The position numbers and the translations under genes were made by a program. Under the pieces are notes generated by a model. The model was not told where the DNA came from and searched no databases. It worked only from the letters and a program-made list of their open reading frames with translations. From assembly GCA_902590895.1 (NCBI GenBank), contig CACIYM010000001.1, positions 68,477 through 132,476 on the forward strand: a stretch of DNA of 64,000 bases, read 5' to 3'. How positions within the stretch are numbered: the stretch's first letter is position 1; each line of letters starts with the position of its first letter. Below are positions 11,275 to 28,980 of this stretch, in pieces. The stretch comes from an uncultured Alphaproteobacteria bacterium. Its GTDB lineage: Bacteria; Pseudomonadota; Alphaproteobacteria; Methylaequorales; Methylaequoraceae.

Positions 11275-12063
11275 TTACATACCAGGAAGTCTCATTAAAC
11301 TTGTACCTGCGGTATCTAATTCTTCAGTCATTTGGATAAGCTTAACATGCATTTCAAATTTTCTCATTTGATCTATCGTGTTAACCATTTCCTCTATTGC
11401 ATTAACGTTACTTTTTTCAAGAAATCCTGAAATTATTTTACCTTGCTGGTTAGGTTCGATTGGAATATTTTCAGCCTCACCATTTGCGTTAACAACTTCA
11501 GCAAATCTAATATGTCCATCAAGAGATTTTTTGAGAGTGTTGTCGCCGTTTGGAACAAAAGTAGCAATGTTTGCTACATTTACTGGTAAAGCACCTGGCT
11601 CAGCTGCAATTGGTTGAATAAGAATTTCTCCTTGCGAAGATATATTTATTTCTCTAAATGCAGGGATAACAATTGGTTGCATGCCTGCATCTAAAACAAG
11701 GTTTCCAGCACCATCAAGTAATTCTCCATTTTCATTTATATTTAGATCTCCACGTCTAGAAAAAGCTGGTATACCATTTTGTGGTTGAATTACAAAATAT
11801 CCATTACCGTCAATAGCTATATCTGTTGGATTATTTGTGTTTTCCATCGTACCTTGCTCGATACTAAATTTCCCAACCTCTCTACCGGCAACAATTCTAG
11901 GCTCAAGACCTTTATTTCTGTTTAAATATAATGCACTAAAGTCTGTTATAACATCCTGTCTGTAACCTGGAGTAACTAGATTAGATAAATTGTGAGCAGT
12001 AGCCATCTGATTTTCCATCAGGTTTTTCATACTATTTAGGGCTGTTTGTGCCATTCTATCCAT
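11275..12063 (-). CDS. flgF: flagellar basal-body rod protein FlgF
   Basis: 262 aa. MDRMAQTAL..TAHNLSNLVTPGYR at the N-terminus and LEKSNVN..RKFEMHVKLI at the C-terminus parallel E. coli FlgF. It is last in the flgBCDEF order. Confidence 0.8.
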   Translation of the reverse strand: MDRMAQTALNSMKNLMENQMATAHNLSNLVTPGYRQDVITDFSALYLNRNKGLEPRIVAGREVGKFSIEQGTMENTNNPTDIAIDGNGYFVIQPQNGIPAFSRRGDLNINENGELLDGAGNLVLDAGMQPIVIPAFREINISSQGEILIQPIAAEPGALPVNVANIATFVPNGDNTLKKSLDGHIRFAEVVNANGEAENIPIEPNQQGKIISGFLEKSNVNAIEEMVNTIDQMRKFEMHVKLIQMTEELDTAGTSLMRLPGM

Positions 12064-12096
12064 AAATAAAACTCCTTTATATCTTATTTAAAATAA

Positions 12097-15000
12097 TTAC
12101 ATTCTGATATTTACAATAGCCTGCGTTGTAGCAGCAGTTGTTTCAATCGATTTAGCATTAGCTTGGAAGTTTCTTTGAGCTGTAATCAAATTAACCAGCT
12201 CTTCAGTAATGTCCACGTTAGATCTTTCCAAAGAACCTGATAATACGGTTCCAAAGCCTTCAGCACCTGCTTCACCAACTGTCGCTGTTCCAGAAACAGC
12301 TGTTTCAACATAAGTTGCGTTACCAATCTGCTTAAGACCATTTTGGTTATTAAAGTTTGCAAGAACAATTTTTCCAAGAGGATTATTCTGTCCATTCGTG
12401 TAGTTTGCTCTTACTGTGCCAGAGGCATCAACTTCAAGTCCATCCAATCTTCCTGATGTAAAACCATCCTGATTAACAGTCGATACGAAGAACGGTTGTG
12501 CTAACTGAGTGGATTTAGTGAAGTCAATATCTAGATCAATACTAAATCCAGCTTCTTGTTTTTCGTAATGAACACCTTGTTTAGGACTCACGATTGCACC
12601 AGATTTATCAAATGTTAATTCTCCCTCGTCGATATATAATGGGAAATAACCTTCAACAAGGTTTGCAGGAGGAGTGGTAACTTTATTGCCATCTGCATCT
12701 ACAAATAAATTTAAACCTTCTGAATTGGTTGCTTGTTTTAAATTGTAAATCTGTGGTACTGATCCAACACCTAAATCCACGTTATCCAATCCAAATTTTG
12801 ACGCTCCTCTAACTTTAATTGTTGATTCTCTTCCTGTTGTACCATTAATAAAAGTAAAATTGTTGGTTGCAGAATTATACTTGACAGTAATACCACCACC
12901 AACTGTACCGGCAGAATCTTCAATTTGGTTAATACGTTCTTGAAGAGCCTCTGCAAGTGTAGTTCCTACATAAAACCCCTGTGGTATTTCAATAACACCT
13001 GCTACTCCATTAACTGAAACGTTAAATATATTCTCATTTCCTTGATTAGAAAGTCTAAATACTTGTGTCAAATCCTCTGTTGCTGAAGCACCAATTGCTT
13101 GAGCAGGTTGAGCTGCAAGTCCTTTTGCATCTGTTGTAATAGCATTTGTTTTTGTTACACCTATTCCTAACAAGTTATTATCTCCTGAAAAGAAATCAGT
13201 TGAATCTGTAACTGAGCCATTAGTAGTTGAGAGAAGATATCTTCCTACTACTATACTAGAAGCAGTTTGAGCCTCTGTTACACCAATTGCACCATTAGCA
13301 GCAATCGTTTCACCGGTAGTTCCACTACTAAATTCAAAAGCTTTTAATTCACTATTATAACCAACTTTGACTCCAAATCTTTTATCGTTAAGTTGGATCT
13401 CTGCACCATCAGCAACAAAAGTATTTGCTGAAAACTTTTCTCCACCTCTAATTAATGTTTCAGTGGTATCATCAGCAGTCGGAATTCCTAAATTATTTTC
13501 TGAGGTTGCTGTTGATGAACCAAAAATTTTGAAACTATTAAAGTTACTATTTGTACCTGTACCAATGAGGTTCCTGTCCACTTCAAATTGAAGTCTCTGA
13601 TTTAAAACATCATAAGTCACTTCTATTGGTGGATCCTTTTCATCTACCCAATGAGTTGCTGGTTTAGTTTTATCTGTTGATGTACCATCTCCATTTAGAT
13701 ATAAATCTCTTGATGCTGTATTTGTATTTTCACCTAATCCAGTTAATTCATAGGTATCTAATGCTGTACCAGATGCGGTTTCTGTATCAGTGAGAGGGAA
13801 TACTTCAACTAAATCATCAATAATATTTTTTGCCGCTCCAGCTGCTGTAGTTTTTGTAACCATACTTGCATTTGTATAATCATGTTTAGTTGTTGAACCA
13901 ATTTCTCTTATTACAATCTTTGAGCTACTGAAGTTTACAGGCGCTCCTTGATAAACATTTTGCGCACCCTCAAAAAATGCCTCTACGGCAGTTGATTCTT
14001 CAGAATATATATTTGCTGAATCATTTGCATTAGCTACTGACAAGGTAAAGTCTGAATCAGGAAAACTCATTCCTGCAGTACTGGCTTCTATATAGTGATA
14101 TGTGGTACCTCCTGTAGTTTCAGAACCAATTGAAGCAATGGTAAACTCTCTGCCATTAACAAAATCTGAATTAGAATTAAATGTTGTATCAGAGTAAAAT
14201 TTTCCGACGAATCTAACTTTTTCATTTGCAGTAAGTCCAGGGTCACTCGAGCCAAAATAAAATCTCACAGTATTTTCTGATTGATCATAGGATACAGCAG
14301 TTGTACTGGCATTATCTCCCAAGGAATCCACCTCATCGTAAACATGAAGTTCAGGTGTTTTTCCGTAGTATGAATATGTGAGATGTCGGCCAGTAGTAGT
14401 AGGTCCACTGGCTGTAAGGGTAGCTGCGTCAGCTGCTGTTCTGTGGTTAAATGTAAAAGCTTGACTTTGAGTCAGTATAGTTGATATGGCTTTTCCAGAG
14501 GCTCTGTAGAATAAACTATCTCCAACACCTAAAGCAGTTGCACTAGCTACCGCATCATTAGCTGGGTTAACAGCATATTCATTCAGAGCGGCATTCAAAC
14601 GAGCTTGGGTATGCGCTAAAAATTGTTCTCTTGTAAAATCCGGTGATGCACCAGTCAAAACTATTCCCTCTAGATCAGAAACATATGAATCACTTAATAA
14701 ATCTACAGAAACTGGTGTAGTCAAACCTGTGGATGTTCCATCAGCGTTCAATTTCAGTAAATCTATAGTCAAAGTATCGTCTACGTTTTGGACAATTTGA
14801 ATTTTTTTATCATCTCCATATGCAGCATTTACTGCTCTTTGAATTTCAGCAGATAATTGAGTTGCATTATAAGAACCTGGTCTAATATCGATATTTACCG
14901 GTTGGTCACTATTGTCGACATTTATAGTCATGAAATTAGTACCCCAATAAATATTAGAAGATGTATCCCCGCTTTCTCTTGTTGAATTAAATTTCATAGG

Positions 15001-15991: not shown

Positions 15992-16696
15992 TTAATCATT
16001 TGTTTTTAGTTTGATGGCGTCATTGGCTGAAATTTCACCATAATCTTTTGTTTCTAGGATTACATCCTCACTATTTTTAGGTGCTGAGGCTGCAATTACT
16101 TTGTTATAAACGGCTGTACTTATTCCGTCACTGGCTTCGCCGTTTCCAGCATATGCTTGAATAGTTAATCTTGTTTTACTTTTTTTAATTTCATCTGGTA
16201 TATCTATCCAGCTAAAACCAACTAAACCTTTTTCTTGTGATCCAAGAGAAAGTGAATGAACTATTTCACCTGAAGGACTAGTAAATGTTAAACCAACATC
16301 GTTTGAGTAAGATGGCAAATCAACGACTCCATGAATCTCTCCATTATCATCTGGACTTACCACCTGACCTGGAACTAATACCGAGTGTCCTAAGAATTGA
16401 GCTGCAGTAGCCACTCTATTAGGTTCAAGTTTAGATCCTAAATTTGTTAAATTGTTATTAATTTCAGTAATACCCGTTACTGTTGAAAACTGTGCCATTT
16501 GAGCAATAAAATCACCGTTGTCCATTGGAGCAAAGGGATCTTGATTTTGCAATTGTGTTGTCATAAGTTTGAGAAAATCCTCTTGTCCTAAAGAATTTTT
16601 ATTTGCTGGTCTTTTTGCTTCTTCTTGAGTTTTCACTCCAAGCTTATTAAGAATGTTATTTAAAGATTGTTCAGATGATTTTGATATTTCTGTCAT
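15992..16696 (-). CDS. flgD: flagellar hook capping/assembly protein FlgD
   Basis: 234 aa. LGQEDFLKLMTTQLQNQDPFAPMD motif. Synteny supports the call. Confidence 0.85.
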   Translation of the reverse strand: MTEISKSSEQSLNNILNKLGVKTQEEAKRPANKNSLGQEDFLKLMTTQLQNQDPFAPMDNGDFIAQMAQFSTVTGITEINNNLTNLGSKLEPNRVATAAQFLGHSVLVPGQVVSPDDNGEIHGVVDLPSYSNDVGLTFTSPSGEIVHSLSLGSQEKGLVGFSWIDIPDEIKKSKTRLTIQAYAGNGEASDGISTAVYNKVIAASAPKNSEDVILETKDYGEISANDAIKLKTND

Positions 16697-16702: not shown

Positions 16703-17116
16703 CTACTTTCCTAAATTAGCTGTTTTGAGCATAAGTGCTTTGATTGTTGAAATTACCTCTACATTATTTTGATACTGTCTAGAAGCTTCAAGCATATCTA
16801 CATATTCTTCTTCAATGTTTACTGGAGCTTTATAAATAAACCCATCTTTGTCAGCCATAGGGTGACCGGGTTTGTATTGTTTAATAGGCTCGATATCCAT
16901 CTTCTCAACTGTTACGGCATCAACTGTTGATATCCCTTTTTTTCTAATTAGATCAAAATATTTAGTTTCAAAAACTGGTTTGACTGGTTTATATGCATCT
17001 TGTGGGTTACCAGCAATATTATCGGCATTTGCTAAATTACTGGCAATAGCATTTAATCTTACAAGTTGAGCACCCATGGCTCTTTGCGCGATATGATAAA
17101 TATTTTTAATTTCCAT
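16703..17116 (-). CDS. flgC: flagellar basal-body rod protein FlgC
   Basis: 137 aa. NAIASNLANADN at the N-terminus and VNIEEEYVDMLEASRQYQNN at the C-terminus. Confidence 0.85.
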   Translation of the reverse strand: MEIKNIYHIAQRAMGAQLVRLNAIASNLANADNIAGNPQDAYKPVKPVFETKYFDLIRKKGISTVDAVTVEKMDIEPIKQYKPGHPMADKDGFIYKAPVNIEEEYVDMLEASRQYQNNVEVISTIKALMLKTANLGK

Positions 17117-17505
17117 TATTCACCTCTAATAGCACTCATTAGTCCTGTTAACTTTGAATTTATAAAGTTTAAGGTAGTTTGATATCTAACTGAATTTTCA
17201 GCAAATTCCATTTGCTCAACTGATAATTCCACAGTATTACCATCCATTGAAGGAGTTAAAGGGTCTCTATATTGAACCTTTCCAGGTAAATTTTTTGAAG
17301 CTAACGAAATATGTCCTTTATCGGACGTTTTTAAAGGTCCTACACTCAGTACTCTTGCTAATTCAACTTCAAAGTCTACGTCTCTAGCTTTGTAGTTTGG
17401 TGTTGCAGCATTAGCAATGTTAGAGGCTAGAATTTCATTTCTTTTATTTCTTATGCCTAATGCATTGCTGTATACTTCAAATTGTTGTTTAATACTATCA
17501 GTCAT
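17116..17505 (-). CDS. flgB: flagellar basal-body rod protein FlgB
   Basis: 129 aa. RNEILASNIANAATPNYKARDVDF motif. First gene of the operon. Confidence 0.85.
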   Translation of the reverse strand: MTDSIKQQFEVYSNALGIRNKRNEILASNIANAATPNYKARDVDFEVELARVLSVGPLKTSDKGHISLASKNLPGKVQYRDPLTPSMDGNTVELSVEQMEFAENSVRYQTTLNFINSKLTGLMSAIRGE

Positions 17506-17540: not shown

Positions 17541-17556
17541 TGCAAATTGAATGCCA
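17541..17556 (-). promoter_or_regulatory. sigma-54 (RpoN) -24/-12 promoter for flgBCDEF
   Basis: The minus strand reads TGGCAT-TCAAT-TTGCA, matching the consensus TGGCAC-N5-TTGCW. The predicted TSS is ~25 nt upstream of the flgB ATG. Confidence 0.7.
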
Positions 17557-18534
17557 AAAGAAAGGCAAATGAATATGAATGAAAAAAATAACCTGGAAAA
17601 CGATCTAGATCCTGAGGTAATTAAAGTAAGAGATAAAATAATTACTAAAATCGGTGATAAACCATTAGAGGAAGTTAATTCAATAATTAAAAAATTATTA
17701 AATGAACAGATGGATGAGGTTACTAGAATAGGCGCATTAGCTGCTAGACTCAAAATTATAAGGTCTAAAATTGACCTTTTATATGAAAGAAAAGTAAAAA
17801 TTAATAAAGAACCAGTGCCTAAACCTACTCCGGAGAAAAAAGAGGATATGGTTTCAGTTGAAGAGCAGTGGGTAAGAGTGAAAATGGTTGAAACAGGTGA
17901 TGTTAACGGAAAGCAAATTGATAAAGGAGTTGTATTAGACGTTAAGGAAGATGATGCACAGAAATTAATAGATGCAAAAAAAGCTATACTTGACGTAGAT
18001 AAGCCAAAAAAAGAAGAAAAAAATGAGGTAAAAGCGGAAGAGAAAGATGAATCAAAGACAGAAGAAAAAGTTAAATCAAAAACAGAAGAAACAGAAGAAA
18101 CAGAAGAAACAGTTGAGTCAATAGCAGAAGAAACAGTTGAATCAAAAACAGAAGAAAAACCTGAATCAAAAACAGAAAAAACAGTTGAAACAAAAAATGA
18201 TCAAGAAGTAACAAACGAAAATAAAGCTGTTGAAAAAAAAGAGGATTCAATGGAGGAAAATTCTACAGATGAGAAAAAAGAAGACCAGTTAGGAAAAAAA
18301 GATTTATTAGAACTTCATAAAGAAAAAGAGGATCAAAAAGATTCTGATGAAGTTGACCAAAATAATACTGAGCAAAAATCAGAGTCTACGAGTCAAGCAA
18401 ATACATCAGATCAAAATAGTGAAAAAAGCTCTGAAAAGGATAATGAGTTGATATCAAATGATAAAAAAGAAGACTCTCAAGCTGAAAACAGTGCATCCGA
18501 AAAAGAAGATAAAGATGCTGACGAAAAAAAATAA
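17551..18534 (+). CDS. hypothetical acidic protein with an E/K/T-rich low-complexity C-terminal half
   Basis: 327-aa ORF with no TM segment. It contains ESKTEEK/TEETEETEE repeats. The true start may be M7 or M9, because ATG 17551 lies inside the flgB promoter motif. Confidence 0.5.
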   Translation: MPKERQMNMNEKNNLENDLDPEVIKVRDKIITKIGDKPLEEVNSIIKKLLNEQMDEVTRIGALAARLKIIRSKIDLLYERKVKINKEPVPKPTPEKKEDMVSVEEQWVRVKMVETGDVNGKQIDKGVVLDVKEDDAQKLIDAKKAILDVDKPKKEEKNEVKAEEKDESKTEEKVKSKTEETEETEETVESIAEETVESKTEEKPESKTEKTVETKNDQEVTNENKAVEKKEDSMEENSTDEKKEDQLGKKDLLELHKEKEDQKDSDEVDQNNTEQKSESTSQANTSDQNSEKSSEKDNELISNDKKEDSQAENSASEKEDKDADEKK

Positions 18535-18871
18535 AACATTAATTTTCTTTTTAGTTTGGTTACCATTTTTAATAAGTTGTGAAGACTTATTTACAAGATT
18601 TAAATATGAAACTTATGAATGTGATAAAAATCCCACAAGGTTAAAGAAAATATTTATTAAAAATTATGAGGTGGGTGAAATAGTAGAGGTTGAGTTTGAA
18701 AATGAGGGGTATGAACTAAAAATTACTGAAAATACAGATTTATTAATGAAACTAAAAAGATCTAATCCAGAAATAGAAATAAAAATTGATAAAAAGAGTA
18801 GTTTTATAAATGTAAATTTAAAAAATCACATCTCAAATTTTAAATGCACTAATTATATTTTTAAAATGTAA
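18515..18871 (+). CDS. small lipoprotein, unknown function
   Basis: Internal start giving MLTKKNKTLIFFLVWLPFLISC with lipobox L-I-S-C. The track start at 18458 would add a K-rich extension overlapping the upstream gene. Confidence 0.5.
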   Translation: MLTKKNKTLIFFLVWLPFLISCEDLFTRFKYETYECDKNPTRLKKIFIKNYEVGEIVEVEFENEGYELKITENTDLLMKLKRSNPEIEIKIDKKSSFINVNLKNHISNFKCTNYIFKM

Positions 18872-18876
18872 CGATT

Positions 18877-19299
18877 CTATTTACCGTGAAATTTTATTAT
18901 AGGCTCAATTTCCTCTTTTGACATACCAGTCATTTCAGAAATTTCTTCAATTGTTTTTCCTTCACTAGCCATTTTGATGGCATTAGTAATGTTGGAGTCT
19001 TCCTTAGAAGTATCAGCTAGTCTTGATGTTTCTTGTTCTAATCTCTCTAAAGTATATTTATAGTCTTGTAAAATTTTTTTTTGATCAGAAAATAAAAGTT
19101 CGAAAGATCTGAACTCTTCAATTAAATCTTTTATTGCTCTTTCTAACATTGATATTTTTTTTTCATTAAGTTTATTTTTTTTTAAATCGTAATAAAAAGC
19201 CACAGAAACTGTTATGAAAATAAAAATAAAGAATATTATTACAACTGACGATAAGGTAGAGGAGGGGTCCTTTTTGAACAAATTACCTAAAAAATCCAT
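18877..19299 (-). CDS. DUF2802-like flagellar-locus protein (N-terminal TM, coiled coil, C-terminal HTH-like tail)
   Basis: 140 aa. TM segment VVIIFFIFIFITVSVAFYY. The tail NAIKMASEGKTIEEISEMTGMSKEEIEPIIKFH matches my recollection of the DUF2802 C-terminus found in Pseudomonas/Vibrio flagellar clusters. Confidence 0.45.
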   Translation of the reverse strand: MDFLGNLFKKDPSSTLSSVVIIFFIFIFITVSVAFYYDLKKNKLNEKKISMLERAIKDLIEEFRSFELLFSDQKKILQDYKYTLERLEQETSRLADTSKEDSNITNAIKMASEGKTIEEISEMTGMSKEEIEPIIKFHGK

Positions 19300-19335: not shown

Positions 19336-19617
19336 TTAATTAATTTTTCTATTTTTTAAAAAATTGTTAAAATCATCTAAAAAGTTTTTTTTGGCGTCTT
19401 GTTTATTATTAAGTTTTTCTAAAAGAACTTTAAGTTTTTTGAGTTTCTCTTCTATCAGATTTTTTTGTGTTTCGGTTTGATTAAATAAGTCAACTTTTAG
19501 TTCTTGGAATGACATCGATATTTCTTTTTCGGTTTCTTGGATTTTTTCCGAGTTTTCGAGATCAGCACTTATTTCAATTAAATTAATTAGGCGATCTAAT
19601 TGATCTTTAACATTCAT
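19336..19617 (-). CDS. small coiled-coil protein in the flgN position (possible FlgN-like chaperone)
   Basis: 93 aa, helical. Positioned directly after flgM as in the enteric flgA-flgM-flgN order. I recognised no sequence motif. Confidence 0.3.
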   Translation of the reverse strand: MNVKDQLDRLINLIEISADLENSEKIQETEKEISMSFQELKVDLFNQTETQKNLIEEKLKKLKVLLEKLNNKQDAKKNFLDDFNNFLKNRKIN

Positions 19618-21110: not shown

Positions 21111-22289
21111 CTAATTCATAAATCTAATTAATTTTCCGTTAATATCCTCTTTTTTATTTGCAGGATTTAGAATTTCTAAAACAGAGAAATCTCCACTTGA
21201 ATCTTTAACTGTAACAACGATCCAATCTCTCATTGAATGATTAGGGTTATTGTTAGATGCAAATCCAACCTTTCCTATTTGAACACCTTGATTAATACCA
21301 AGTGGAATTGTTAAAACATCTTTCACAAGTTCAGCTCTTGCCTCAAGTGGGTAACATTTTAATCTATCTTTGACTCTAAATTGCATTTTAGAAATACTAT
21401 TTTGAACGACTTCTTCAATTTTGTCATATGGTATTTTATAAAAGCCATCCACATGTTGATAGCCTGTTTCAATACCCAATAACACCGAAAAATTATAATT
21501 TAGGGTATCTATAATATTAAAATTAGTTCCCTCAAAAAGATTGATTGTTAGTGCAACATCAACTTTATTTAAAAATCTTGTCAACGTTCCTTTGCTGCGT
21601 TTCAGTTCAATTAGAGTGTGCATACCAAATTCACCTGATTTAAGAGAACCTGATTTTCCTTCAACTAACGCCTGATAATCCAAACTTATAGGTAACGCAG
21701 AAAATTTCTTTGGATTAAAATCAAAATTTGTTGAATCCTTTAATGAAATTTGATCAAAACTAGTTAAATTCTCAAATATTTTTTGAGATATTAACAGGGG
21801 TAAACTCTGTAATTGAGCAGGAAGTTTACTTGAAACCACAAAATTTGGTTTAAAATAACTTAAGTTAATATTACTTCTCGCTGAACAGTCTAGTAAACTA
21901 TTTATACTTACTAAAATAGCCTTAATTTTTACAGTGTAGTGAGTTTCGTCTTTGCTTTCCTCTAAAATTACAAAGTCCTTAATTGATGATGATGGTCTAA
22001 TCAATAAATTTTCATTTAATGAAGTATTGGTGTCAACCGTTGAATAGCCGTCTATTTTAGCACCAGCTTGCAGACTAGCCAAATACAAAGCATCGTCTAG
22101 AGCTCTTTTTTTTGCAATCATTTCATTTCCATCAACAATTACAGCTCTTCCTTCTGAAATAATAGCTTTGTGAGAAATTTCTTGAGCAACTAGCAATGTT
22201 GATGCAAAAAGAAAAAATAGCAATGTAGTTACAAAAACTATTAATTCTTTTATTACAGAATCAACTTTATTATAAGTAAACTTTTTCAA
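21111..22289 (-). CDS. flgT: FlgT-like flagellar H-ring/assembly protein
   Basis: 392 aa with an N-terminal signal/anchor. AKKRALDDALYLASLQAGAKIDGYS and the C-terminal beta-rich region resemble Vibrio FlgT. Adjacent to flgP. Confidence 0.55.
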   Translation of the reverse strand: MKKFTYNKVDSVIKELIVFVTTLLFFLFASTLLVAQEISHKAIISEGRAVIVDGNEMIAKKRALDDALYLASLQAGAKIDGYSTVDTNTSLNENLLIRPSSSIKDFVILEESKDETHYTVKIKAILVSINSLLDCSARSNINLSYFKPNFVVSSKLPAQLQSLPLLISQKIFENLTSFDQISLKDSTNFDFNPKKFSALPISLDYQALVEGKSGSLKSGEFGMHTLIELKRSKGTLTRFLNKVDVALTINLFEGTNFNIIDTLNYNFSVLLGIETGYQHVDGFYKIPYDKIEEVVQNSISKMQFRVKDRLKCYPLEARAELVKDVLTIPLGINQGVQIGKVGFASNNNPNHSMRDWIVVTVKDSSGDFSVLEILNPANKKEDINGKLIRFMN

Positions 22290-22320: not shown

Positions 22321-22824
22321 TTAAATTGATTGTGCTTGTCTAAATAAATATGCGACCATATCCTGATCGATTTCTAATACTGTTTCATATGTATCAGAGC
22401 CAGTTGGATTAATTCTAACTGTTCGTGCGCCTCTTATTACGCCTGAAACGATGCCTCTGAAAGTATCATTTTGAACCATTAAATCTATAACTGTAGTATT
22501 ACTATCAACCTTTAAACCATGTATTTGCTCTGCTAATTCTCTCATCGCCGACATTCTTGCTGCCCTGATAGCCATTAAACGTCTTTGTTCGATGCTTTGA
22601 CCAGGTTGTGTTGATACAACTGCATAACCTGTTGCTGTTAAGGTTGGAAATGTTATCGATGCACCATCAAGTAATTCTCTAGTTTTATTTAATTGATTTG
22701 TTGGAGCAGAATATTCGTCATCGGTTTGAGCAAAGCTTGTTTGATTTAATCCTAGATTTCCCAACATGCCTGGGGCACAAGACTGTGTTATTAAAATTAA
22801 TATAGCTAAAAAAGTTTTTTTCAT
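22321..22824 (-). CDS. flgP: FlgP / LPP20-family flagellar outer-membrane lipoprotein
   Basis: 167 aa. Lipobox LITQSC. RRLMAIRAARMSAMRELAEQIHGLKVDS...GVIRGAR is the LPP20/FlgP pattern. Confidence 0.65.
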   Translation of the reverse strand: MKKTFLAILILITQSCAPGMLGNLGLNQTSFAQTDDEYSAPTNQLNKTRELLDGASITFPTLTATGYAVVSTQPGQSIEQRRLMAIRAARMSAMRELAEQIHGLKVDSNTTVIDLMVQNDTFRGIVSGVIRGARTVRINPTGSDTYETVLEIDQDMVAYLFRQAQSI

Positions 22825-22870: not shown

Positions 22871-22885
22871 GCATAATTTATGCCA
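22871..22885 (-). promoter_or_regulatory. sigma-54-type promoter for the flgP-flgT-...-flgA operon
   Basis: The minus strand reads TGGCAT-AAATT-ATGC, with correct GG-N10-GC spacing. The predicted TSS is ~35 nt upstream of the flgP ATG, followed by an AAGGA SD. Confidence 0.55.
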
Positions 22886-22921: not shown

Positions 22922-22937
22922 TGGCATACGCCTTGCA
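22922..22937 (+). promoter_or_regulatory. sigma-54 promoter for flhA-flhF-flhG-fliA
   Basis: The plus strand reads TGGCAT-ACGCC-TTGCA. The predicted TSS is ~76 nt upstream of the flhA ATG. Confidence 0.7.
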
Positions 22938-23023: not shown

Positions 23024-25156
23024 ATGGATCTAGTATTAAAAAGCTTTCAAAAAGAAAATTTTTTTAATTTTTTAAGAACATTTAGCATTCCAATTGGAAT
23101 TATGGTTTTAATCGCGATGATGGTTATTCCATTGAGTCCCACAATGCTGGATATTCTCTTTACTTCAAATCTATTAGTTTCTTTACTTGTTTTAATGGTA
23201 GCATTACAGACCTTCCGACCTCTAGACTTTTCAAGTTTTCCAACTGTTTTGTTATTTGCTACCGTTTTAAGACTCGGACTAAATGTCGCTTCAACCAGAG
23301 TAATTTTAAAAAATGGTCATAATGGTACAGATGCTGCTGGAAGCATTATTGAAGCCTTTGGTGAATTCGTTATGTCGGGGAGTTATGCTGTAGGCCTCTT
23401 TGTTTTTGCAATTTTAGTGATTATTAACCTTATTGTAATCACAAAAGGAGCTGGGAGAGTTTCCGAGGTTGCCGCAAGATTTACTTTGGATGCGATGCCT
23501 GGAAAACAAATGGCAATTGATGCTGACTTGAATGCAGGAGTTTTATCTACTGAGGAGTCAAAACAGAGAAGAAAAGAAATTGCTAAAGAAGGAGAATTTT
23601 ATGGAGCTATGGATGGTGCAGCAAAGTTTGTAAAGGGAGATGCAATAGCCGGAATTTTAATTTTAATTATCAATATCATCGGTGGGTTAATTATTGGTAC
23701 TGTTAATCACGACCTTACCATATCTCAATCTGCTGAAAGTTATATTCTTTTAACAGTTGGTGATGGTTTGGTAGCCCAAATTCCTTCATTACTATTAGCA
23801 ATGGCAACTGCAACGATTGTTACAAGAATTTCTTCAGATGAACATGATCTAGCTGGACAAATTTCAACTCAAATGGGTTTATCGAAGGCTTGGGTACCGG
23901 TTTCTGGTGTATTATTATTATTTGGTCTTGTTCCTGGAATGCCAAATACCTTGTTTTTAGCTGGTGCAGTTATATCAGCTACAATTGCTTGGTACACATC
24001 AAAGAATTCAGAGGCAATTGATAAAGAGACTACAGAAGAAGAAAAAGAAGAAAATCATGGTAAAATTGATATTGAAGAGGTGTCAGATAACTCTTCGGTA
24101 TCTTTAGATCTTGGATATGGACTAATTTCAATGGTTGATTCAAATGAAAAAAAGTCAGCTGGCCCTCTAATTTCAAAGATAACTGGAATAAGAAAACAAG
24201 TATCAAAAGATTTAGGGTTTGTGATTCCAAATGTAAGAGTAAGAGATGATTTATCTTTAGATGCAAATGCTTATCAAATTAAAATTGGGCATACAATTGT
24301 CGCAGAGGATAAAATATATGTTGACAGAAAGCTTGCAATGCCAAGTGACGAAACACAACTTAAAATTCAAGGTATTCAAGTAAAAGATCCTTCTTTTGGT
24401 TTAGATGCTTATTGGATTGAAAAGCATTTGGTTTCAAAAGCTGAGTCACATCATTATATGATTATCGAACCTGAGGCAGTCATTGGGACTCATCTAAATC
24501 AAGTTTTACTCAAATATGCTGGAGATCTTTTAAGTCAAGACGATGTTCAACTCTTGTTGGATAATCTGGCAAAAATCAATCCACAGTTAGTTCAATCAGT
24601 GATACCTAAATTGATTCCTTTGCATCACCTAACAATTATTTTGAGAAATTTATTAGTAGAGAGAGTGCCAATTAATGATTTAAAAAAAATCTTAGAAGCA
24701 TTATCAAATCTTTCCGACAAAAAATTAAGTCCTGACGAACTTTCAGAAGCTGTGAGACCAGCAATCTCGTCGTTATTAATTCAAAAAATTTCAAGTGTAA
24801 AAGAAGCTTTAAACATAGTAACTTTTAATCCTGACTTAGAGCAAATGCTAATTTCAATGTCAAAAAAAAGTACCTCTGAAGGACTTTTAATTGACCCTAA
24901 CCTCGCTAAACAAATGATTAAATCAATACTAGAGATAAACGAAAAGACTTCCTCAGATGGAAATCCAGTAGTAATAGTTACATCACCTATTATTAGGAAA
25001 GACCTTTCAATTTTACTTCGTCAGCACATCGAGGATATCGTAGTTTTAGCTTTCACCGAACTTCCTGAAAGTAAAAGGGTTAAAGTAATTGCTACTGTTG
25101 GCGAAAAAATAATCACTGAAGAAAAGGAGAAAAACAATGAAAACGCAAACGTTTAA
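23024..25156 (+). CDS. flhA: flagellar export apparatus protein FlhA
   Basis: 710 aa. FHIPxR-region equivalents (RVSEVAARFTLDAMPGKQMAIDADL, AMDGAAKFVKGDAIAG) and a cytoplasmic C-terminal domain. Confidence 0.9.
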   Translation: MDLVLKSFQKENFFNFLRTFSIPIGIMVLIAMMVIPLSPTMLDILFTSNLLVSLLVLMVALQTFRPLDFSSFPTVLLFATVLRLGLNVASTRVILKNGHNGTDAAGSIIEAFGEFVMSGSYAVGLFVFAILVIINLIVITKGAGRVSEVAARFTLDAMPGKQMAIDADLNAGVLSTEESKQRRKEIAKEGEFYGAMDGAAKFVKGDAIAGILILIINIIGGLIIGTVNHDLTISQSAESYILLTVGDGLVAQIPSLLLAMATATIVTRISSDEHDLAGQISTQMGLSKAWVPVSGVLLLFGLVPGMPNTLFLAGAVISATIAWYTSKNSEAIDKETTEEEKEENHGKIDIEEVSDNSSVSLDLGYGLISMVDSNEKKSAGPLISKITGIRKQVSKDLGFVIPNVRVRDDLSLDANAYQIKIGHTIVAEDKIYVDRKLAMPSDETQLKIQGIQVKDPSFGLDAYWIEKHLVSKAESHHYMIIEPEAVIGTHLNQVLLKYAGDLLSQDDVQLLLDNLAKINPQLVQSVIPKLIPLHHLTIILRNLLVERVPINDLKKILEALSNLSDKKLSPDELSEAVRPAISSLLIQKISSVKEALNIVTFNPDLEQMLISMSKKSTSEGLLIDPNLAKQMIKSILEINEKTSSDGNPVVIVTSPIIRKDLSILLRQHIEDIVVLAFTELPESKRVKVIATVGEKIITEEKEKNNENANV

Positions 25157-26294
25157 AGCTAAAGATGTTAAGTCTGCTATAAATCTGGTAAACACAGAAT
25201 TTGGAGATAAAGCAATAATTTTATCAACAAAAAAAAATAATGGTTTTGTAGAGGTCGAAGCATCTGATAATGACGATATTATTTTTGATCATAAAAAAAA
25301 AGTTGAAGAAAATAAAAACTTTTCAAACGTTTTTTTGAAAGAATTAAAAACAAAAAATATTAATTCAACACTTAATGATAAAAATAAAGTTTCTTATCTA
25401 AATAAAGAAAATAGTAATATTAAAAAAGATAATATTTCAAAAGATTCAAAAGAAATCTTTGAAAAAATTAGAGACGATATAGCTTCATTAAGAAAAGAAA
25501 TGAATGGGATGATTGTTACAGATCAGTCAGGAATTTCTGATGAACTTTCTCATCAAACACCTATCAAGTTAAGACAAGAAAAATTTTCACCTGAAATAAT
25601 TAACAAACTTAATTACTCATTTATTGGAAAAAGTTTAGAAGATGGTAGAGTTTCATTTTTTAGAGAATTATCAAGAAAACTTGCATCAAATGATTTCTCA
25701 AGGTTATTAAAATCAAAAAATATATTTATATTTGGCAATTCTGGTTCTGGAAAATCCACTTTGGCTGCTAAACTTGCTTCTTTTCTATCAGATGCGAAAC
25801 AAACAAAAAAAATAAATTTTTTTGAGGTCTCTAACTCTAGTACTGGGTTATCTGACGTTCTCAAGTCCTATAGCAGGGTTTTGGGATTTAATTTAAATGA
25901 TTACAATACGTTTGATTTCAAGAATTATAGTGATACCAGCGAATGGATAAATATTTTTGATTTTTCTGGTGAATTGAATTTTAGTATTCAAAAAATAAAA
26001 GAGATCAAAAATTCATTTCCGTCTTTTGATTTTTGTTCTATATTGACAATACAAAGTGGTTCAAATTCAGAAATGATAAATGGGATAACAAAAAAAGTTG
26101 AAGAAATAAGACCAATGGTTGCGATTACAAAGCTTGACGAATGCTGGGTAGGTGCCGAGGAATTTTCTTCACTTGCTATTAATAATGCTAGAATTGGAAT
26201 GGTGACTGGAACAAAGATCATAATTGATTCAATTATTGAAGCAAATGAAAATGCTTTAACAAAATATATGAAAGATAATTTTGAAAATGTCTGA
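25137..26294 (+). CDS. flhF: flagellar SRP-type GTPase FlhF
   Basis: 385 aa. The N-terminus MKTQTFKAKDVKSAINLVNTEFGDKAIILS is FlhF B-domain-like. G1 is GNSGSGKST, G3 is DFSG, G4 is TKLDE. Confidence 0.75.
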   Translation: MKTQTFKAKDVKSAINLVNTEFGDKAIILSTKKNNGFVEVEASDNDDIIFDHKKKVEENKNFSNVFLKELKTKNINSTLNDKNKVSYLNKENSNIKKDNISKDSKEIFEKIRDDIASLRKEMNGMIVTDQSGISDELSHQTPIKLRQEKFSPEIINKLNYSFIGKSLEDGRVSFFRELSRKLASNDFSRLLKSKNIFIFGNSGSGKSTLAAKLASFLSDAKQTKKINFFEVSNSSTGLSDVLKSYSRVLGFNLNDYNTFDFKNYSDTSEWINIFDFSGELNFSIQKIKEIKNSFPSFDFCSILTIQSGSNSEMINGITKKVEEIRPMVAITKLDECWVGAEEFSSLAINNARIGMVTGTKIIIDSIIEANENALTKYMKDNFENV

Positions 26295-27084
26295 TTCAAT
26301 TGCAATAACTAGCGGAAAAGGTGGAGTTGGAAAAACAACAATTGCTGTAAACTTATCAATAGCTTTAAAAAAAATTTCCTCAGAAGTTTATCTTCTAGAT
26401 ACCGATTTAGGAATGGCCAACTCACATGTTTTGTTAGGTGTTAACCCAGCTCATTCAATTTCTGATGTAATAAATAATAAAAAAAAAATTTCTGAAATCA
26501 TCGTTCCAAGTAAAAGCGGGGTACAACTTATATCTGGAGGAACCGCTTCCAATAACTTACTGAATGTTGAGAACAAGAAAAGATACTCCATTTTAAATCA
26601 AATCGATAGCCATTTAAAAGATCAAAACGACGTTAAATTAGTAGTTGATATAGCTGCTGGTGCGGAGGACAATGCATTAGTGTTTGCAATGGCTTGCGAC
26701 AGAGTTGTGATTGTGATTATTGGAGAACCAACAAGTTTCGTTGACTCTTATGCACTTCTAAAGGCAATTTTTTCGAAATCATCATTTAAAAATTATTGTG
26801 TTGTTGTTAATCAGGTTCAAGATGAGGATCAAGGAAAAGATCTTTTTCTGAAATTTCAAAAAATTACTACAAGGTTTTTAGACGTTAATTTGCATTACGT
26901 AGGTTCAATTAAAAATTCTCCCAAAATAAGAAAGTCAATTATTAATAGGATCCCAATAGTTTCAGAGGAACCAAAATCCGATATTTCACAGAGCTTTCTC
27001 AGTGTTGCAAAGAATATTTACAACACTCCAACAAATGAGTGGGGAGGCCTAACATTTTTATCAAAAGTAAAAAAAAGAGCTTAA
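26281..27084 (+). CDS. flhG: MinD/ParA-type ATPase FlhG (FleN)
   Basis: 267 aa. Deviant Walker A SGKGGVGKTT almost at the N-terminus. Positioned between flhF and fliA. Confidence 0.8.
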   Translation: MKMSDSIAITSGKGGVGKTTIAVNLSIALKKISSEVYLLDTDLGMANSHVLLGVNPAHSISDVINNKKKISEIIVPSKSGVQLISGGTASNNLLNVENKKRYSILNQIDSHLKDQNDVKLVVDIAAGAEDNALVFAMACDRVVIVIIGEPTSFVDSYALLKAIFSKSSFKNYCVVVNQVQDEDQGKDLFLKFQKITTRFLDVNLHYVGSIKNSPKIRKSIINRIPIVSEEPKSDISQSFLSVAKNIYNTPTNEWGGLTFLSKVKKRA

Positions 27085-27091: not shown

Positions 27092-27790
27092 ATGGCAAAT
27101 TATTATACAGACAAATCAAAAATTTCAATAAATCAACTTATTGAAAACAACCTTGAATTAGTTAAAAAAATTGCTTGGCAAATTTTTGGAAGAGTCCAAA
27201 GAGTTGTTGAGGTTGAAGATCTTATTCAACAAGGAATGGAGGGTTTAGTCTCTGCTGCTCAAAAGTATTCTCCGAAAGAGGGTGTAAATTTTCAACAATA
27301 TGCTCAGTTAAGAATTAGGGGCTCAATAATTGATTTTCTCAGAAAAAATTCAAATTTATGTAGGACCACTATTAAAAAAAAACAAGAATTTGAAAAATGT
27401 AAGGTTTCATTACAAAAAGAATTAAGTCGAGAGCCTAGTAAATACGAATTAATTGAAAAATTAGGTATTACTGATGATGAGTATAACTACTGGGAAAAAG
27501 CTTTTGAAGCCAATACTCTTCAAAGTTTAGATCAGGCATATGATGAGTACTCAGTAATATATGCAAGTTCATCAAATGATCCAGAAATATCACTTCAGGA
27601 TAAACAGTTGAAAGACCAAATTAAAAAAGCATTAAGTGTCCTAAACCAAAGAGAGGCAATGGTTGCACAGCTATATTATGTGGAAGAATTAAATATTTAT
27701 GAAATATCAGAAATCTTAGAGATTAGTACTGGAAGAATATCACAAATAAAAAAAGTAATAATTGAAAAATTAAGGCATGAAATTAGTTGA
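27092..27790 (+). CDS. fliA: flagellar sigma factor FliA (sigma-28)
   Basis: 232 aa. Region 2 (DLIQQGMEGLVSAAQKY, YAQLRIRGSIIDFLR) and a region 4 HTH (LNIYEISEILEISTGRISQI). Confidence 0.85.
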   Translation: MANYYTDKSKISINQLIENNLELVKKIAWQIFGRVQRVVEVEDLIQQGMEGLVSAAQKYSPKEGVNFQQYAQLRIRGSIIDFLRKNSNLCRTTIKKKQEFEKCKVSLQKELSREPSKYELIEKLGITDDEYNYWEKAFEANTLQSLDQAYDEYSVIYASSSNDPEISLQDKQLKDQIKKALSVLNQREAMVAQLYYVEELNIYEISEILEISTGRISQIKKVIIEKLRHEIS

Positions 27791-28193
27791 CCCAAAAAAA
27801 GAAAACTGGAAAGAGATAAATAAAATTGTATTAATTGTTAATGCTGTTGACTTTGATTACTCTGAAAAACTTGCTATAAATCTTAACTGTAACTTTGAAA
27901 ATATTTCCAAAGGAAGATGTACAGTGAGAATAAACGAAAAAAAAAATAAGTGTACAAATTCATTATCAGTTCTATCAAATCAAGCACTAATGATGGTTAA
28001 TATTTTTTATGAATATTTAGAGATTGAGAAGTTGGTTAACTTTATAATTTTAAACAAAAATAATAAAAAAAAAATAAAGGGTTTTATAGAAATTTTTGAT
28101 AATCTAATGGTTAACGACTCAGGTTATTTGTATGTAAATAATGAAATGGAAATAAAAATTAAAAAAATTTCTTGGAATATACCTATTATCTAG
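27777..28193 (+). CDS. hypothetical protein coupled to fliA
   Basis: 138-aa ORF overlapping the fliA end by 14 nt. N/K/I-rich, with no motif recognised. Confidence 0.35.
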   Translation: MKLVDPKKENWKEINKIVLIVNAVDFDYSEKLAINLNCNFENISKGRCTVRINEKKNKCTNSLSVLSNQALMMVNIFYEYLEIEKLVNFIILNKNNKKKIKGFIEIFDNLMVNDSGYLYVNNEMEIKIKKISWNIPII

Positions 28194-28980
28194 CTGATAA
28201 CTTCTTAGTAACATCAATATCAGATTGCATCATTTTAGAACATCCATTAAATGCTTGTTGTGTTCTTAACATTAGTATAATTTCATCTGTGATATCTGTG
28301 TTAGATTTTTCTAAAAAACCGGCTTGAAGTTTTCCTAATGTTCCTTCCTTGGGAGCAGCAAATGTTGGAACTCCACTTTCTCCTGTCTCTTGAAATCTAG
28401 CACTACCGATATTTTGCAATCCAAATTCATTTACAAAGTCTGCAAGTGCAATTCTTCCTACAATATTTTTGGTATCTAATCCATATGTTGCTTCTATTGT
28501 ACCATCATTATCAACTTTAATTTCTGTTAGAATTGCTTCTCCATCATCGGTCGCAGATTTGAATGGTATATTAATTAATGCTTGTCCTTCGCCTAATAAA
28601 GGTAAACCATCTGTTGTAACTAGGTTTCCTTGTCTATCAAGTTGAAATGACCCATCTCTTGTGTAAGTTAATGCTTGATTTGCCAATTCTCTTCCGACAG
28701 GAGAACCTAATACAAAAAAACCTTCTCCCATAATTGCTAGGTCAAGACTACCATTTGTCTGTTGAAGGGAGCCTTGAGAGAAGTTTTGTCTTGGTTTAAT
28801 TGCTTTTACACCAATCCCTCTTGCAACTTCTTGAGATCTGTTATGATGGGAATGGTACATATCTTCAAATTGTGCCTCACTTTTTTTAAAACCATTAGTA
28901 CCAGCATTTGCAATGTTGTTAGATATTACTGCCAAATCCTTATTAGCTGCGTCTAAACCTGTTCTTAGTATGCTAAACAT
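28186..28980 (-). CDS. flgG: flagellar distal rod protein FlgG (or FlgG/FlgE-family paralog)
   Basis: 264 aa. NNIANAGTNGFKKSEAQFEDM, YTRDGSFQLDRQGNLVT and LEKSNTDITDEIILMLRTQQAF parallel E. coli FlgG. Confidence 0.65.
   Translation of the reverse strand: MFSILRTGLDAANKDLAVISNNIANAGTNGFKKSEAQFEDMYHSHHNRSQEVARGIGVKAIKPRQNFSQGSLQQTNGSLDLAIMGEGFFVLGSPVGRELANQALTYTRDGSFQLDRQGNLVTTDGLPLLGEGQALINIPFKSATDDGEAILTEIKVDNDGTIEATYGLDTKNIVGRIALADFVNEFGLQNIGSARFQETGESGVPTFAAPKEGTLGKLQAGFLEKSNTDITDEIILMLRTQQAFNGCSKMMQSDIDVTKKLSAR

Follow-up and report, generated by a model that had tools for sequence, protein, structure and literature searches.

The flagellar gene block at positions 11275–28980 of the window (the whole 64,000-nucleotide stretch of contig CACIYM010000001.1 that was analysed) is genuine, as demonstrated by a profile search of the window ORFs, and its host is an oceanic, methanol-eating alphaproteobacterium of TMED127 with a tiny genome. 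The block is of a gamma/Fla1-like type inherited throughout the order, and a full, embellished flagellum is kept there despite the complete lack of chemotaxis genes. In the reading that we consider probable, the TMED127/Methylaequorales genus MED-G10 has a complete flagellar regulon, of which the block forms the native “class III” half, and this regulon represents a gamma/beta-related lineage which was vertically inherited within the order. New here are the sizes of FlgE (1290 aa) and FlgK (1792 aa), and the absence of CheW and MCPs alongside a conserved CheY-docking motif of FliM.

The block comprises flgFEDCB, a DUF2802-flgN?-flgM-flgA-LysM-flgT-flgP operon, and flhA-flhF-flhG-fliA with the conserved u138 (Table 1). 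Pfam bore out the enteric flgBCDEF order of the original prediction, and the order flhA-flhF-flhG-fliA was recovered too, with flhF matched weakly, below the cut-off; its sequence carries the P-loop GNSGSGKST and a TKLD motif, and its position is conserved. From the expected series “flgA-flgM-flgN-like-DUF2802”, the profiles supported flgA, flgM and DUF2802 (a protein with a transmembrane segment, a coiled coil and, by alignment, an HTH-like C-terminus), while the flgN-like ORF matched nothing in Pfam or NCBIfam and is named a putative flgN from its position and coiled-coil character. The 167-aa and 392-aa proteins, read earlier as FlgP and FlgT-like, both show the respective profile and PDB similarity (FlgP against FlgP of 8z5n, E 3.8e-16; FlgT profile against FlgT of 8z5n/3w1e/9yec, E 2e-7, residues 37–343), and the AF2 model of FlgT (pLDDT 75) has 8z5n and 3w1e as its top Foldseek matches (E about 1e-18). 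MotY_N was found in 0/42 family genomes, with the Vibrio positive control detected, and no FlgO was detected.

Table 1. Features of the flagellar block (window positions).
Feature	Position	Strand	Evidence
flgF, proximal rod	11275..12063	-	Last gene of flgBCDEF operon; Pfam Flg_bbr_C and LlgE_F_G_D1; clusters with FlgF in tree
flgE, giant hook protein, 1290 aa	12097..15969	-	Pfam Flg_bb_rod, D1, FlgE_D2, Flg_bbr_C
flgD, hook cap/scaffold	15992..16696	-	Pfam FlgD, E 9.5e-24
flgC, rod protein	16703..17116	-	Pfam; E. coli FlgC phmmer E 8e-25
flgB, rod protein, first gene of operon	17116..17505	-	Pfam; E. coli FlgB phmmer E 2e-25
Predicted sigma-54-type promoter of flgBCDEF, TGGCATTCAATTTGC	17542..17556	-	Upstream of flgB in 6/6 relatives and outgroups examined
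u327, conserved cytoplasmic protein, divergent from flgB	17551..18534	+	Orthologs in same position in TMED127, L011, G139, G153
u137, small conserved lipoprotein	18515..18871	+	Lipobox ...LISC and two more conserved Cys; kept in TMED127, L011, G153
DUF2802 membrane protein	18877..19299	-	Pfam DUF2802 34 bits, narrowly above 33.5-bit cut-off
93-aa coiled-coil ORF in flgN position	19336..19617	-	Detected within genus only
flgM, anti-sigma-28 factor	19626..19940	-	Pfam FlgM, E 1.7e-8
flgA, P-ring assembly chaperone	19976..20665	-	Pfam ChapFlgA, E 3.4e-20
u143, secreted LysM/FimV-core-like, peptidoglycan-binding-type, in flgP operon	20671..21102	-	NCBIfam FimV_core E 2.4e-7, LysM E 8.8e-6, both below family cut-offs
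flgT, H-ring protein	21111..22289	-	Pfam FlgT_N 38.6 bits (cut-off 28.8)
flgP, outer-membrane lipoprotein, basal disk/H-ring	22321..22824	-	Pfam LPP20 34.1 bits (cut-off 25.9)
Sigma-54-like site upstream of flgP, TGGCATAAATTATGC	22871..22885	-	Weaker -12 element; equivalents in L120, L121, L123, L124
Predicted sigma-54-type promoter of flhA-flhF-flhG-fliA, TGGCATACGCCTTGC	22922..22936	+	Kept in 6/6 relatives and outgroups examined
flhA, export gate	23024..25156	+	Pfam FHIPEP, E 1.6e-229; tree
flhF, divergent SRP-type GTPase, flagellar placement	25137..26294	+	NCBIfam TIGR03499 77 bits, E 2.4e-21, below cut-off
flhG, MinD/ParA-type ATPase, flagellar number	26281..27084	+	Pfam ParA/CbiA/AAA_31; gamma FlhG matches E 1e-41 to 5e-51
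fliA, sigma-28	27092..27790	+	Pfam Sigma70_r2 and r4; E. coli FliA phmmer E 1.9e-29
u138, conserved, 138 aa	27777..28193	+	Orthologs in same slot in TMED127, L011, G153, G139, G056, G181
mini-flgE, D2-less FlgE paralog, 264 aa	28186..28980	-	NCBIfam FlgE models match both ends
Sigma-54-type site upstream of mini-flgE, TGGCATATAAATTGC	28993..29007	-	12 nt from ATG

Several conserved genes accompany the structural ones. u327 has a conserved N-terminal part of ~150 aa and a hyper-acidic, variable tail, and matched no Pfam or NCBIfam family; u137 probably starts at the internal Met at 18515; u143 possesses a signal peptide and is strongly conserved in TMED127, L011, G153 and G139. u138 occupies the slot held by cheY in gamma clusters, has no Pfam or PDB match and is rare, with 208 representatives in a set of 1.84 billion proteins.

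The hook protein FlgE, of record size, has ordinary D0/D1/D2 ends and a conserved insert of ~850 aa, in which internal repeats were searched for and none found. Its best PDB matches, at both ends, are Vibrio FlgE (9yee, 8z5u); the full-length identity is 79–82% across the TMED127 genera and 58–64% to outgroups, and the relatives' proteins span 1282–1539 aa. The gene at 28186–28980, previously taken for a flgG detached from flgF, is the wrong gene: it does not reach the equivalog cut-offs of FlgG and FlgF, while FlgE models match its ends. In the tree this mini-flgE forms its own clade (support 97), sister to FlgE (96) and apart from FlgG and FlgF; it lacks the D2 domain and the extra Dc-segment residues of E. 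coli FlgG, and is kept in nine genomes from six families. The gene that comes after flgF encodes an EamA transporter.

The genes for the rest of the flagellum lie outside the block. Upstream on the same contig are fliE-flhB and motAB (C1:122-20499). Contig C22 carries the true flgG and, after it, flgHIJK and the beginning of flgL, whose frame is truncated and chimeric at the contig end; the flagellin gene is on contig C8. The reported lack of flgHIJKL, fliE-R, flhB, motAB and fliC is therefore true for the window but not for the genome, and the term “rearranged” fits only the splitting-off of flgGHIJKL, the remaining layout being ancestral for the clade.

Sigma-54-type sites (TGGCAT-N5-TTGC) occur directly upstream of flgB, flgP, flhA and mini-flgE. 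Their prediction was upheld by enrichment throughout the genome (15 sites versus about 2.4 expected) and by conservation at the starts of orthologous operons; the mini-flgE site is conserved within TMED127 (L120, L121, L122) and was not found in the outgroups examined. RpoN is present in 32/42 family genomes, the same genus included. The host assembly itself contains no rpoN, fliD or intact flgL, which is attributed to its 71% completeness and the chimeric contig end. The region upstream of the flagellin gene showed no clear sigma-28 consensus.

By analogy with Fla1 (PMC7277832), with the Pseudomonas/Vibrio cascades and with what is known of FlhF/FlhG and FliA/FlgM, we suggest a regulatory order, ring roles, polar placement and swimming behaviour for this system. 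RpoN with FleQ/FleT-type activators would fire the sigma-54 promoters of flgBCDEF, the flgP-to-DUF2802 operon, flhA-flhF-flhG-fliA-u138 and mini-flgE. FlhA would gate export, and FlhF with FlhG would determine where flagella form and how many there are. FlgB, FlgC and FlgF may form the rod, while FlgA, FlgT and FlgP, probably with the LysM protein and the small lipoprotein, would provide the P-ring-associated outer rings (H-ring, disk) without a MotY-type T-ring. FlgD and the 1290-aa FlgE would build an unusually thick hook, until completion of which FlgM may hold FliA; FliA would then switch on flagellin.

The absence of che genes noted for the window extends to the whole genome and family: in Pfam searches with working controls, CheW and MCPsignal were each found in 0/42 family genomes, and CheW is also absent from five outgroup genomes with the same block. 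The frames with receiver-domain matches are all 222 aa or longer, except one of 163 aa in G326. Since the searches used the two Pfam domains and E. coli CheY, they would overlook a sensory pathway that is new or has diverged strongly. The N-terminal CheY-docking motif of FliM is conserved. The motor presumably works without a CheA/CheW/MCP/CheY pathway; accordingly, swimming is probably undirected (run or run-stop), or another input steers it through the docking peptide.

The same absence may suggest a relic or a repurposed, non-swimming structure, e.g., a secretion device or an adhesion organelle, as has been suggested for what is left of the flagellum in certain endosymbionts. The hook protein and FlgK far exceed the normal size, the TMED127 paper reports no motility, and oligotrophs are generally described as non-motile (bioRxiv 10.1101/2022.07.21.501054). 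However, flagellin, FliD (29/42 family genomes, the same genus included), MotA, MotB (with plug and OmpA domains), FliG, FliM and FliN are present and intact, the stator genes are needed for rotation only, and conservation is strong, with FlgE sequences of different genera about 80% identical. Moreover, ~40 or more flagellar genes are kept in TMED127 genomes of 1.1–1.6 Mb, which argues for a costly, selected function. We therefore regard a non-swimming structure as unlikely. What makes this lineage notable is the combination of a full, embellished flagellum and a record-size hook protein with the lack of chemotaxis genes.

The FlhA phylogeny shows that the system represents a gamma/beta-related flagellar lineage and not the ordinary alphaproteobacterial type. 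In this tree (“quick” search, midpoint-rooted, no outgroup from another phylum, the AT-rich TMED127 rows flagged for unusual composition), 20 typical alpha FlhAs stand apart, across a very long branch (support 100), from the gamma and beta ones together with an alpha-only subclade (support 100) of TMED127, four other families and Sphingomonadales; the host protein thus does not branch with the vertically inherited alphaproteobacterial flagella. It is 41% identical to E. coli FlhA and 37–38% to same-class FlhAs, the typical alpha proteins across the class giving 35–41% and the class-wide identities being bimodal. Together with FlhF/FlhG, FliA/FlgM, the sigma-54 promoters, FlgT and FlgP, the tree supports the gamma type originally proposed.

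The similarity of flhA-flhF-flhG-fliA, flgT/flgP and sigma-54 control to Vibrio and Pseudomonas, the FlhA closer to gamma/beta than to typical alpha proteins and the tRNA-Val gene adjoining the right end might suggest a recently imported gammaproteobacterial island. Such an origin is largely refuted and appears very improbable. FHIPEP occurs in 24/25 sampled family genomes across 14 genera. The complete block is found with colinear genes in G003, G012 and G007, as well as in L011, G153 and G139; three genera of TMED127 share its order with no fewer than three further lineages of Alphaproteobacteria. The block has the native base composition (GC 27–37%, genome 29.5%), and its flanks hold alphaproteobacterial housekeeping genes, including the predicted three-part pnt, with no integrase or mobile-element genes. 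The nearest FlhA relatives outside the family (55–59% identity) are all Alphaproteobacteria. Since the host FlhA belongs to an alpha-only subclade, sister to gamma/beta and nested in no sampled gamma order, the suggested lateral derivation stands at most as an ancient transfer from a gamma/beta-like donor. The small, AT-rich genome of alphaproteobacterial type had been foreseen correctly.

A gammaproteobacterial contig misplaced in an alphaproteobacterial bin, which the 43-contig, 71%-complete assembly and the chimeric ORF at the C22 end could suggest, is already refuted and has practically no likelihood: the block lies mid-way in a 244-kb contig between alphaproteobacterial housekeeping genes, the independent single-cell genome AG-901-J22 (locus L010; o__TMED127, g__MED-G10 in the PMC12542740 supplement) has the same arrangement and a 98% identical FlhA, and 40 other family genomes agree with this.

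One of the closest known systems is Fla1 of Cereibacter (Rhodobacter) sphaeroides (PMC7277832); “Fla1-like” refers to shared features, not to the FlhA tree. Both are gamma-related flagellar sets in Alphaproteobacteria, with an flgBCDEF operon, sigma-54-dependent class III genes including fliA and flgM, an FlgT H-ring and FlgP without MotY, an oversized FlgK (1363 aa in Fla1) and a short, rod-binding-only FlgJ (102 aa here). In contrast, Fla1 has an FlgE of 423 aa, and several CheY, CheA and CheW proteins from genes within and near its locus steer it; the review does not mention FlhF, and mini-flgE, u138, u327, the LysM protein and the lipoprotein are undescribed for Fla1.

With the Vibrio/Pseudomonas polar flagellum the block shares the flhA-flhF-flhG-fliA order, the flgT, flgP and flgA-flgM-flgN neighbourhood, DUF2802 and a sigma-54 plus sigma-28 cascade, and Vibrio LPHT-ring and hook structures are the best PDB matches of FlgE, FlgP and FlgT. 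Nevertheless, it lacks cheY-cheZ-cheA after fliA, MotY and a detectable FlgO, its FlhA is outside the gamma clade, and its hook protein is three times larger. Sphingomonadales, the nearest named FlhA relatives outside TMED127-like lineages (47–49% identity, same alpha-only subclade), differ in having a normal FlgE (about 430 aa), flgG directly after flgF, no flhF-flhG between flhA and fliA, CheA and CheW, and no flgT, flgP or mini-flgE within 10 kb.

Campylobacter and Helicobacter (PMC5069557, PMC5097172) belong to another phylum and are chemotactic; the TMED127 insert is more than twice as long as theirs and, outside the shared core, has no similarity to D3/D4 that sequence comparison could detect, and the Campylobacter paralog is of 58 kDa, whereas the TMED127 one is a D2-less protein of 264 aa. 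The C. jejuni hook consists of the large FlgE only. Nonetheless, these bacteria also have a FlgP disk, a second, smaller FlgE-like gene beside the large one, and a hook enlarged by domains inserted into D2 (FlgE of 718–865 aa with extra D3/D4 domains).

ORF listing and Pfam/NCBIfam scans resolve four transcription units between window positions 11275 and 28980, and the flagellar gene block is as originally predicted except for the gene that had been called flgG. The order flhA-flhF-flhG-fliA, as in Vibrio and Pseudomonas, is found in the window and in relatives. The assembly, from the genus MED-G10 of TMED127/Methylaequorales, comprises 1.07 Mb in 43 contigs (GC about 30%, completeness 71%); the window spans positions 68477-132476 of its contig C1, and the block is embedded in housekeeping genes: a deoxyhypusine-synthase-like gene, an arginase-family gene and an EamA transporter on the left, and tRNA-Val, a TRAP transporter, pyruvate kinase and a three-part Pnt on the right.

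Genes of the flagellar block and of the remaining flagellar loci; C1, C8 and C22 are contigs of the same assembly, and positions without a contig label refer to the window
Feature	Position	Strand	Remarks
flgB-flgC-flgD-flgE-flgF	17505 down to 11275	minus	Pfam/NCBIfam
u327, conserved accessory ORF	17551-18534	plus	divergent from flgB; cytoplasmic, conserved N-terminal part of ~150 aa and hyper-acidic tail
u137, conserved accessory ORF	start probably at internal Met, 18515	plus	small lipoprotein, lipobox LISC
flgP, flgT, u143, flgA, flgM, 93-aa coiled-coil ORF, DUF2802 membrane protein	22824 down to 18877	minus	coiled-coil ORF in flgN position
u143, conserved accessory ORF	in the flgP unit, between flgT and flgA	minus	secreted, LysM/FimV-core-like
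flhA, flhF, flhG, fliA, u138	23024-28193	plus	u138 of 138 aa
mini-flgE	28186-28980	minus	FlgE/F/G family, 264 aa; convergent on the flhA-u138 unit
motA, motB	C1:122-2074		MotB with plug and OmpA domains
fliE through flhB	C1:5469-18093		colinear
fliM	C1:9323-10303		
two activator-like genes	C1:18112-20499		
flagellin gene	C8:4448-5260		270 aa, without outer domains; sole flagellin found
flgK	C22:1855-7233		1792 aa

The original prediction also listed fliE-R, flhB, motAB, fliC and flgHIJK as absent, which holds for the window only; elsewhere in the genome these genes lie on C1, C8 and C22. The flagellin gene stands alone between queuosine-biosynthesis genes, and its short, thin-filament product is quite unlike the giant proteins of the hook and junction. 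On C22, flgG is followed by flgH, flgI, flgJ, flgK and the beginning of flgL; FlgJ, with 102 aa, has no more than its rod-binding part. The minus-strand ORF at C22:1-883 opens with about 100 aa of a typical FlgL N-terminus, after which it encodes an ABC-transporter ATPase with Walker A; the two parts were probably joined by mis-assembly at the end of the contig, and flgL is therefore incomplete in this assembly. Between flgK and flgL there is a 307-aa ORF without Pfam match (C22:922-1845), and between motAB and the genes downstream of flhB there is a 202-aa ribosome-recycling-factor-like ORF (C1:2939-3547; Pfam RRF, E 2.4e-10). In the window, outside the block, 47045-48109 encodes a second OmpA-type protein with a weak match to E. 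coli MotB (phmmer E 2e-4).

Searches of this assembly with E. coli seeds (phmmer) missed FlgA, FlgM, FlgN, FlgL, FliD, FliS, FliH, FliJ, FliO and MotA. Pfam later found several of these proteins, so a missing phmmer match was given no weight; the che genes are the exception, their absence being counted after a re-test with Pfam models. FliD is not in this assembly, yet it occurs in 29 of the 42 TMED127 genomes surveyed for domains (hereafter the family), among them the three further members of the genus. MotY (MotY_N) was found in 0 of the 42, while the positive control succeeded in 3 of 3 (Vibrio, Photobacterium and Idiomarina); a 241-aa MotF candidate ORF has no Pfam match.

The FlhA domain FHIPEP is present in 24 of 25 family genomes sampled, and the nearest public record (98% FlhA identity) is SAG AG-901-J22, listed as GTDB o__TMED127; f__TMED127; g__MED-G10 (PMC12542740 supplement). 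FlhA identity to the window protein, compared over 300 alphaproteobacterial genomes, has a bimodal distribution: 85-100% in the family and 42-66% in about seven genomes of five other families, set against 35-41% in about 190 others; the E. coli protein is 41% identical. A tree of 70 FlhA sequences (IQ-TREE PMSF, "quick" search) was midpoint-rooted without an outgroup from another phylum, with compositional bias flagged for AT-rich rows; it left out Caulobacter, C. sphaeroides and the second flagellar set of the latter, Fla2, which is described as vertically inherited (PMC7277832). On one side of its longest internal branch (support 100) are 20 typical alpha FlhAs; on the other are the sequences of Gammaproteobacteria and Betaproteobacteria together with a single alpha-only subclade. 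This subclade (support 100) unites Sphingomonadales with a clade of TMED127 and sister families, and lies outside the main gamma+beta clade (support 96). As predicted, the window FlhA is thus not among the typical alpha FlhAs and falls on the gamma/beta side of the tree.

Gene order is the same over the complete block (u327, u137, u143, the DUF2802 gene, u138, mini-flgE and the giant flgE included) in three TMED127 genera (G003, G012 and G007). Three alphaproteobacteria outside the family share it as well (L011, a "Rhodobiaceae" MAG, and the outgroups G153 and G139), and two others (G056 and G181) share part of it. The base composition of the block is native; GC rises over flgE (12001-16000) to 36-37% against about 29% in the genome because the hook insert is rich in Gly, Ala and Thr, and it gives no sign of foreign origin. 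Of the predicted gamma- or Fla1-like, embellished and possibly laterally derived motor, the first part stands, given the FlhA tree, FlgT and FlgP and the sigma-54 sites; the native composition and the colinearity across families led us to reject a recent horizontal transfer. Mis-binning of the block was rejected as well. We conclude that the block is of a gamma/beta-related type long inherited vertically, and any transfer, if there was one, would predate the divergence of several alphaproteobacterial orders.

The gene at 28186-28980, previously taken for a detached flgG, was misidentified. It scores 179.8 bits against a FlgG equivalog cut-off of 252.75 bits and is also below the FlgF equivalog cut-off, and FlgE models match both its ends (NCBIfam). 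Its orthologs, taken from nine genomes, group as a separate clade (support 97) when proteins of the FlgE/F/G family are placed in a tree; the sister group is the FlgE clade (support 96), and true FlgG and FlgF branch elsewhere. The protein has no counterpart of the rod-specific stretch of E. coli FlgG, the extra residues of the Dc segment; the sub-cut-off score, this missing insertion and the separate clade reject FlgG. Since it lacks the FlgE D2 domain as well and branches by FlgE, mini-FlgE is a hook-type D0-Dc-D1 protein. A search for homologous proteins returned only close TMED127-like relatives, which are inconsistently named. The true flgG, on C22, is the best match of E. coli FlgG (E 3e-84). 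In the outgroups G153 and G139 the true flgG comes straight after flgF, where TMED127 has the EamA transporter; the split of flgGHIJKL is therefore a TMED127 trait, and the mini-flgE that stands behind fliA belongs to the older, conserved set.

FlgE itself is of unusual size, with 1290 aa in this genome and 1282-1539 aa in relatives and outgroups. Its ends match Vibrio and Salmonella FlgE (PDB), and the insert of about 850 aa is non-repetitive and rich in Thr, Ala, Gly, Ser and Asn. Full-length identity is 79-82% among TMED127 genera and 58-64% to G139 and G153, a conservation equal to or above that of FlhA. An AlphaFold2 model of the outer region (residues 140-1165, six-sequence alignment) was unusable (mean pLDDT 40, pTM 0.30). 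Together with the size of FlgK in this genome, the length of FlgE suggests that the hook and junction region may be very thick.

The two proteins predicted to be components of the H-ring and basal disk were both recognised as such. The 167-aa protein is FlgP, scoring above the LPP20 gathering threshold and matching the solved FlgP chain 8z5n (E 3.8e-16). The 392-aa protein is FlgT: it scores above the FlgT_N threshold, and a profile of eight orthologs matches Vibrio FlgT (8z5n, 3w1e and 9yec) over residues 37-343 (E 2e-7); a single-sequence PDB search gave no match. The two best Foldseek matches of its AlphaFold model (pLDDT 75) are the LPHT-ring FlgT and the FlgT crystal structure, both with E about 1e-18 and some 11 orders of magnitude ahead of the next. 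The global TM-score of the model is low (0.36-0.41), which is consistent with a differing domain orientation.

The sigma-54 promoters that had been proposed are borne out as candidate sites. Sites of the form TGGCAT-N5-TTGC lie 37, 47, 88 and 12 nt upstream of flgB, flgP, flhA and mini-flgE, with 15 observed genome-wide against about 2.4 expected from base composition, and others precede fliK and flgG. The consensus at the flgB, flgP and flhA(-fliA) operon sites, TGGCA[CT]-N5-TTGC, is conserved: all six of the relatives and outgroups that were examined have the flgB and flhA sites at the orthologous positions, and four of them have the flgP site, while the mini-flgE site recurs within TMED127 and was not found in the outgroups examined. 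The latter site (28993-29007) ends only 12 nt from the ATG, so the mini-flgE mRNA would be nearly leaderless. RpoN was detected in 32 of the 42 family genomes, including a genome of the same genus (G003) on its block-bearing contig; rpoN is missing from the present, incomplete assembly. We infer the activity of these putative promoters from such sequence data. Upstream of the flagellin gene no convincing sigma-28 promoter (TAAA-N15-GCCGATAA) was seen.

The absence of che genes after fliA was confirmed and extends across the family. Neither CheW domains, a part of CheA as well as of CheW, nor MCP signalling domains (MCPsignal) were found in any of the 42 genomes, which cover 14 genera and include nine of high quality; controls gave matches in 8 of 14 reference genomes. 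Six genomes searched for receiver domains (five of them at least 93% complete) have exactly five matches each, all in frames of at least 222 aa apart from one of 163 aa in G326, and no stand-alone CheY was identified among the six. CheW is also missing from all five block-sharing outgroup genomes (G153, G139, G056, G181 and G287; five families, completeness 89-100%), while both genomes that group with Sphingomonadales in the FlhA tree have CheA and CheW. Across these alphaproteobacterial genomes, having this flagellar variant coincides with lacking chemotaxis.

In four TMED127 genera as well as in G139 and G153 (loci L128-L133), the FliM N-terminus nevertheless carries the motif RKLS[ST]xEVxAL[MI][DE]GL, which corresponds to LSQAEIDALL, the peptide at which CheY-P docks in E. 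coli. The slot where gamma clusters carry cheY is occupied by u138, whose family (130-145 aa) counts 208 representatives among 1.84 billion proteins. A docking peptide kept without chemotaxis would imply either that undirected swimming pays off for these abundant ocean methylotrophs or that a regulator other than CheY acts on the switch. In our view undirected run or run-stop swimming is the likeliest behaviour, and a switch input other than known chemotaxis is possible. The suggestion that u138 is a degenerate CheY or PilZ was dropped, as neither Pfam nor PDB gave sequence support.

We tentatively propose, as a reading that may well need revision, a distinct flagellar architecture common to TMED127 and at least five other alphaproteobacterial families with small genomes, in which the chemotaxis pathway is lacking and selection maintains the CheY-docking peptide of FliM. 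Its parts would be a FlgE of 1.3-1.5 kaa, a FlgK of 1.8 kaa (in this genome), a D2-less FlgE paralog and an H-ring with disk. Also part of it would be the new accessory proteins u143 (secreted, with LysM), u137 (a small lipoprotein), u327 (cytoplasmic and acidic) and the u138 family.

TMED127/Methylaequorales, streamlined obligate methylotrophs, account for up to several percent of surface-ocean metagenomic reads, and flagella and motility go unmentioned in their description (PMC12542740). That a whole order retains some 40 or more flagellar genes in genomes of 1.1-1.6 Mb, without a chemotaxis system, alters the view of how such oligotrophs encounter their substrate; the order also provides a natural example in which flagellar motility would be independent of chemotaxis. 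Flagellum biology gains a conserved mini-FlgE and several unnamed conserved accessory genes. Moreover, the gamma-related flagellar type in Alphaproteobacteria emerges as an old lineage of several orders, neither a Rhodobacter curiosity nor a recent import.

Among known systems, Campylobacter also has a large hook protein: C. jejuni FlgE, with 865 aa, is one of the longest hook proteins (PMC5069557), and FlgE of the TMED127-type clade is 1.5-1.8 times as long, larger than any other hook protein in the papers that we consulted. The typical alphaproteobacterial flagellum differs in its FlhA, since the window protein branches outside that clade at the low identity common to most alphas. Fla1, the gamma-related set of the alphaproteobacterium C. 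sphaeroides, resembles the present system in having the H-ring protein FlgT and the lipoprotein FlgP, a single-domain FlgJ, no MotY, and an oversized FlgK (1363 aa, with a bulky HAP region; PMC7277832). In the Fla1 cascade, FleQ acts with sigma-54 in the first tier, FleQ/FleT with sigma-54 activate class III genes including fliA, flgM, hook genes and motAB in the second, and FliA activates fliC in the last (PMC7277832); sigma-54-type sites before operons with fliA and flgM fit this scheme. However, Fla1 has a FlgE of normal size (423 aa), and its motor is run by dedicated CheY, CheA and CheW, of which none was found here. In Vibrio and Pseudomonas, che genes follow fliA, where TMED127 has u138 and the convergent mini-flgE, and the window FlhA is not nested within Gammaproteobacteria. 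Set apart from Fla1 and Vibrio by the giant FlgE, mini-FlgE, the unnamed accessory genes and the lack of chemotaxis genes, the system comes nearest to Fla1 by its features and to Vibrio by its structural matches.
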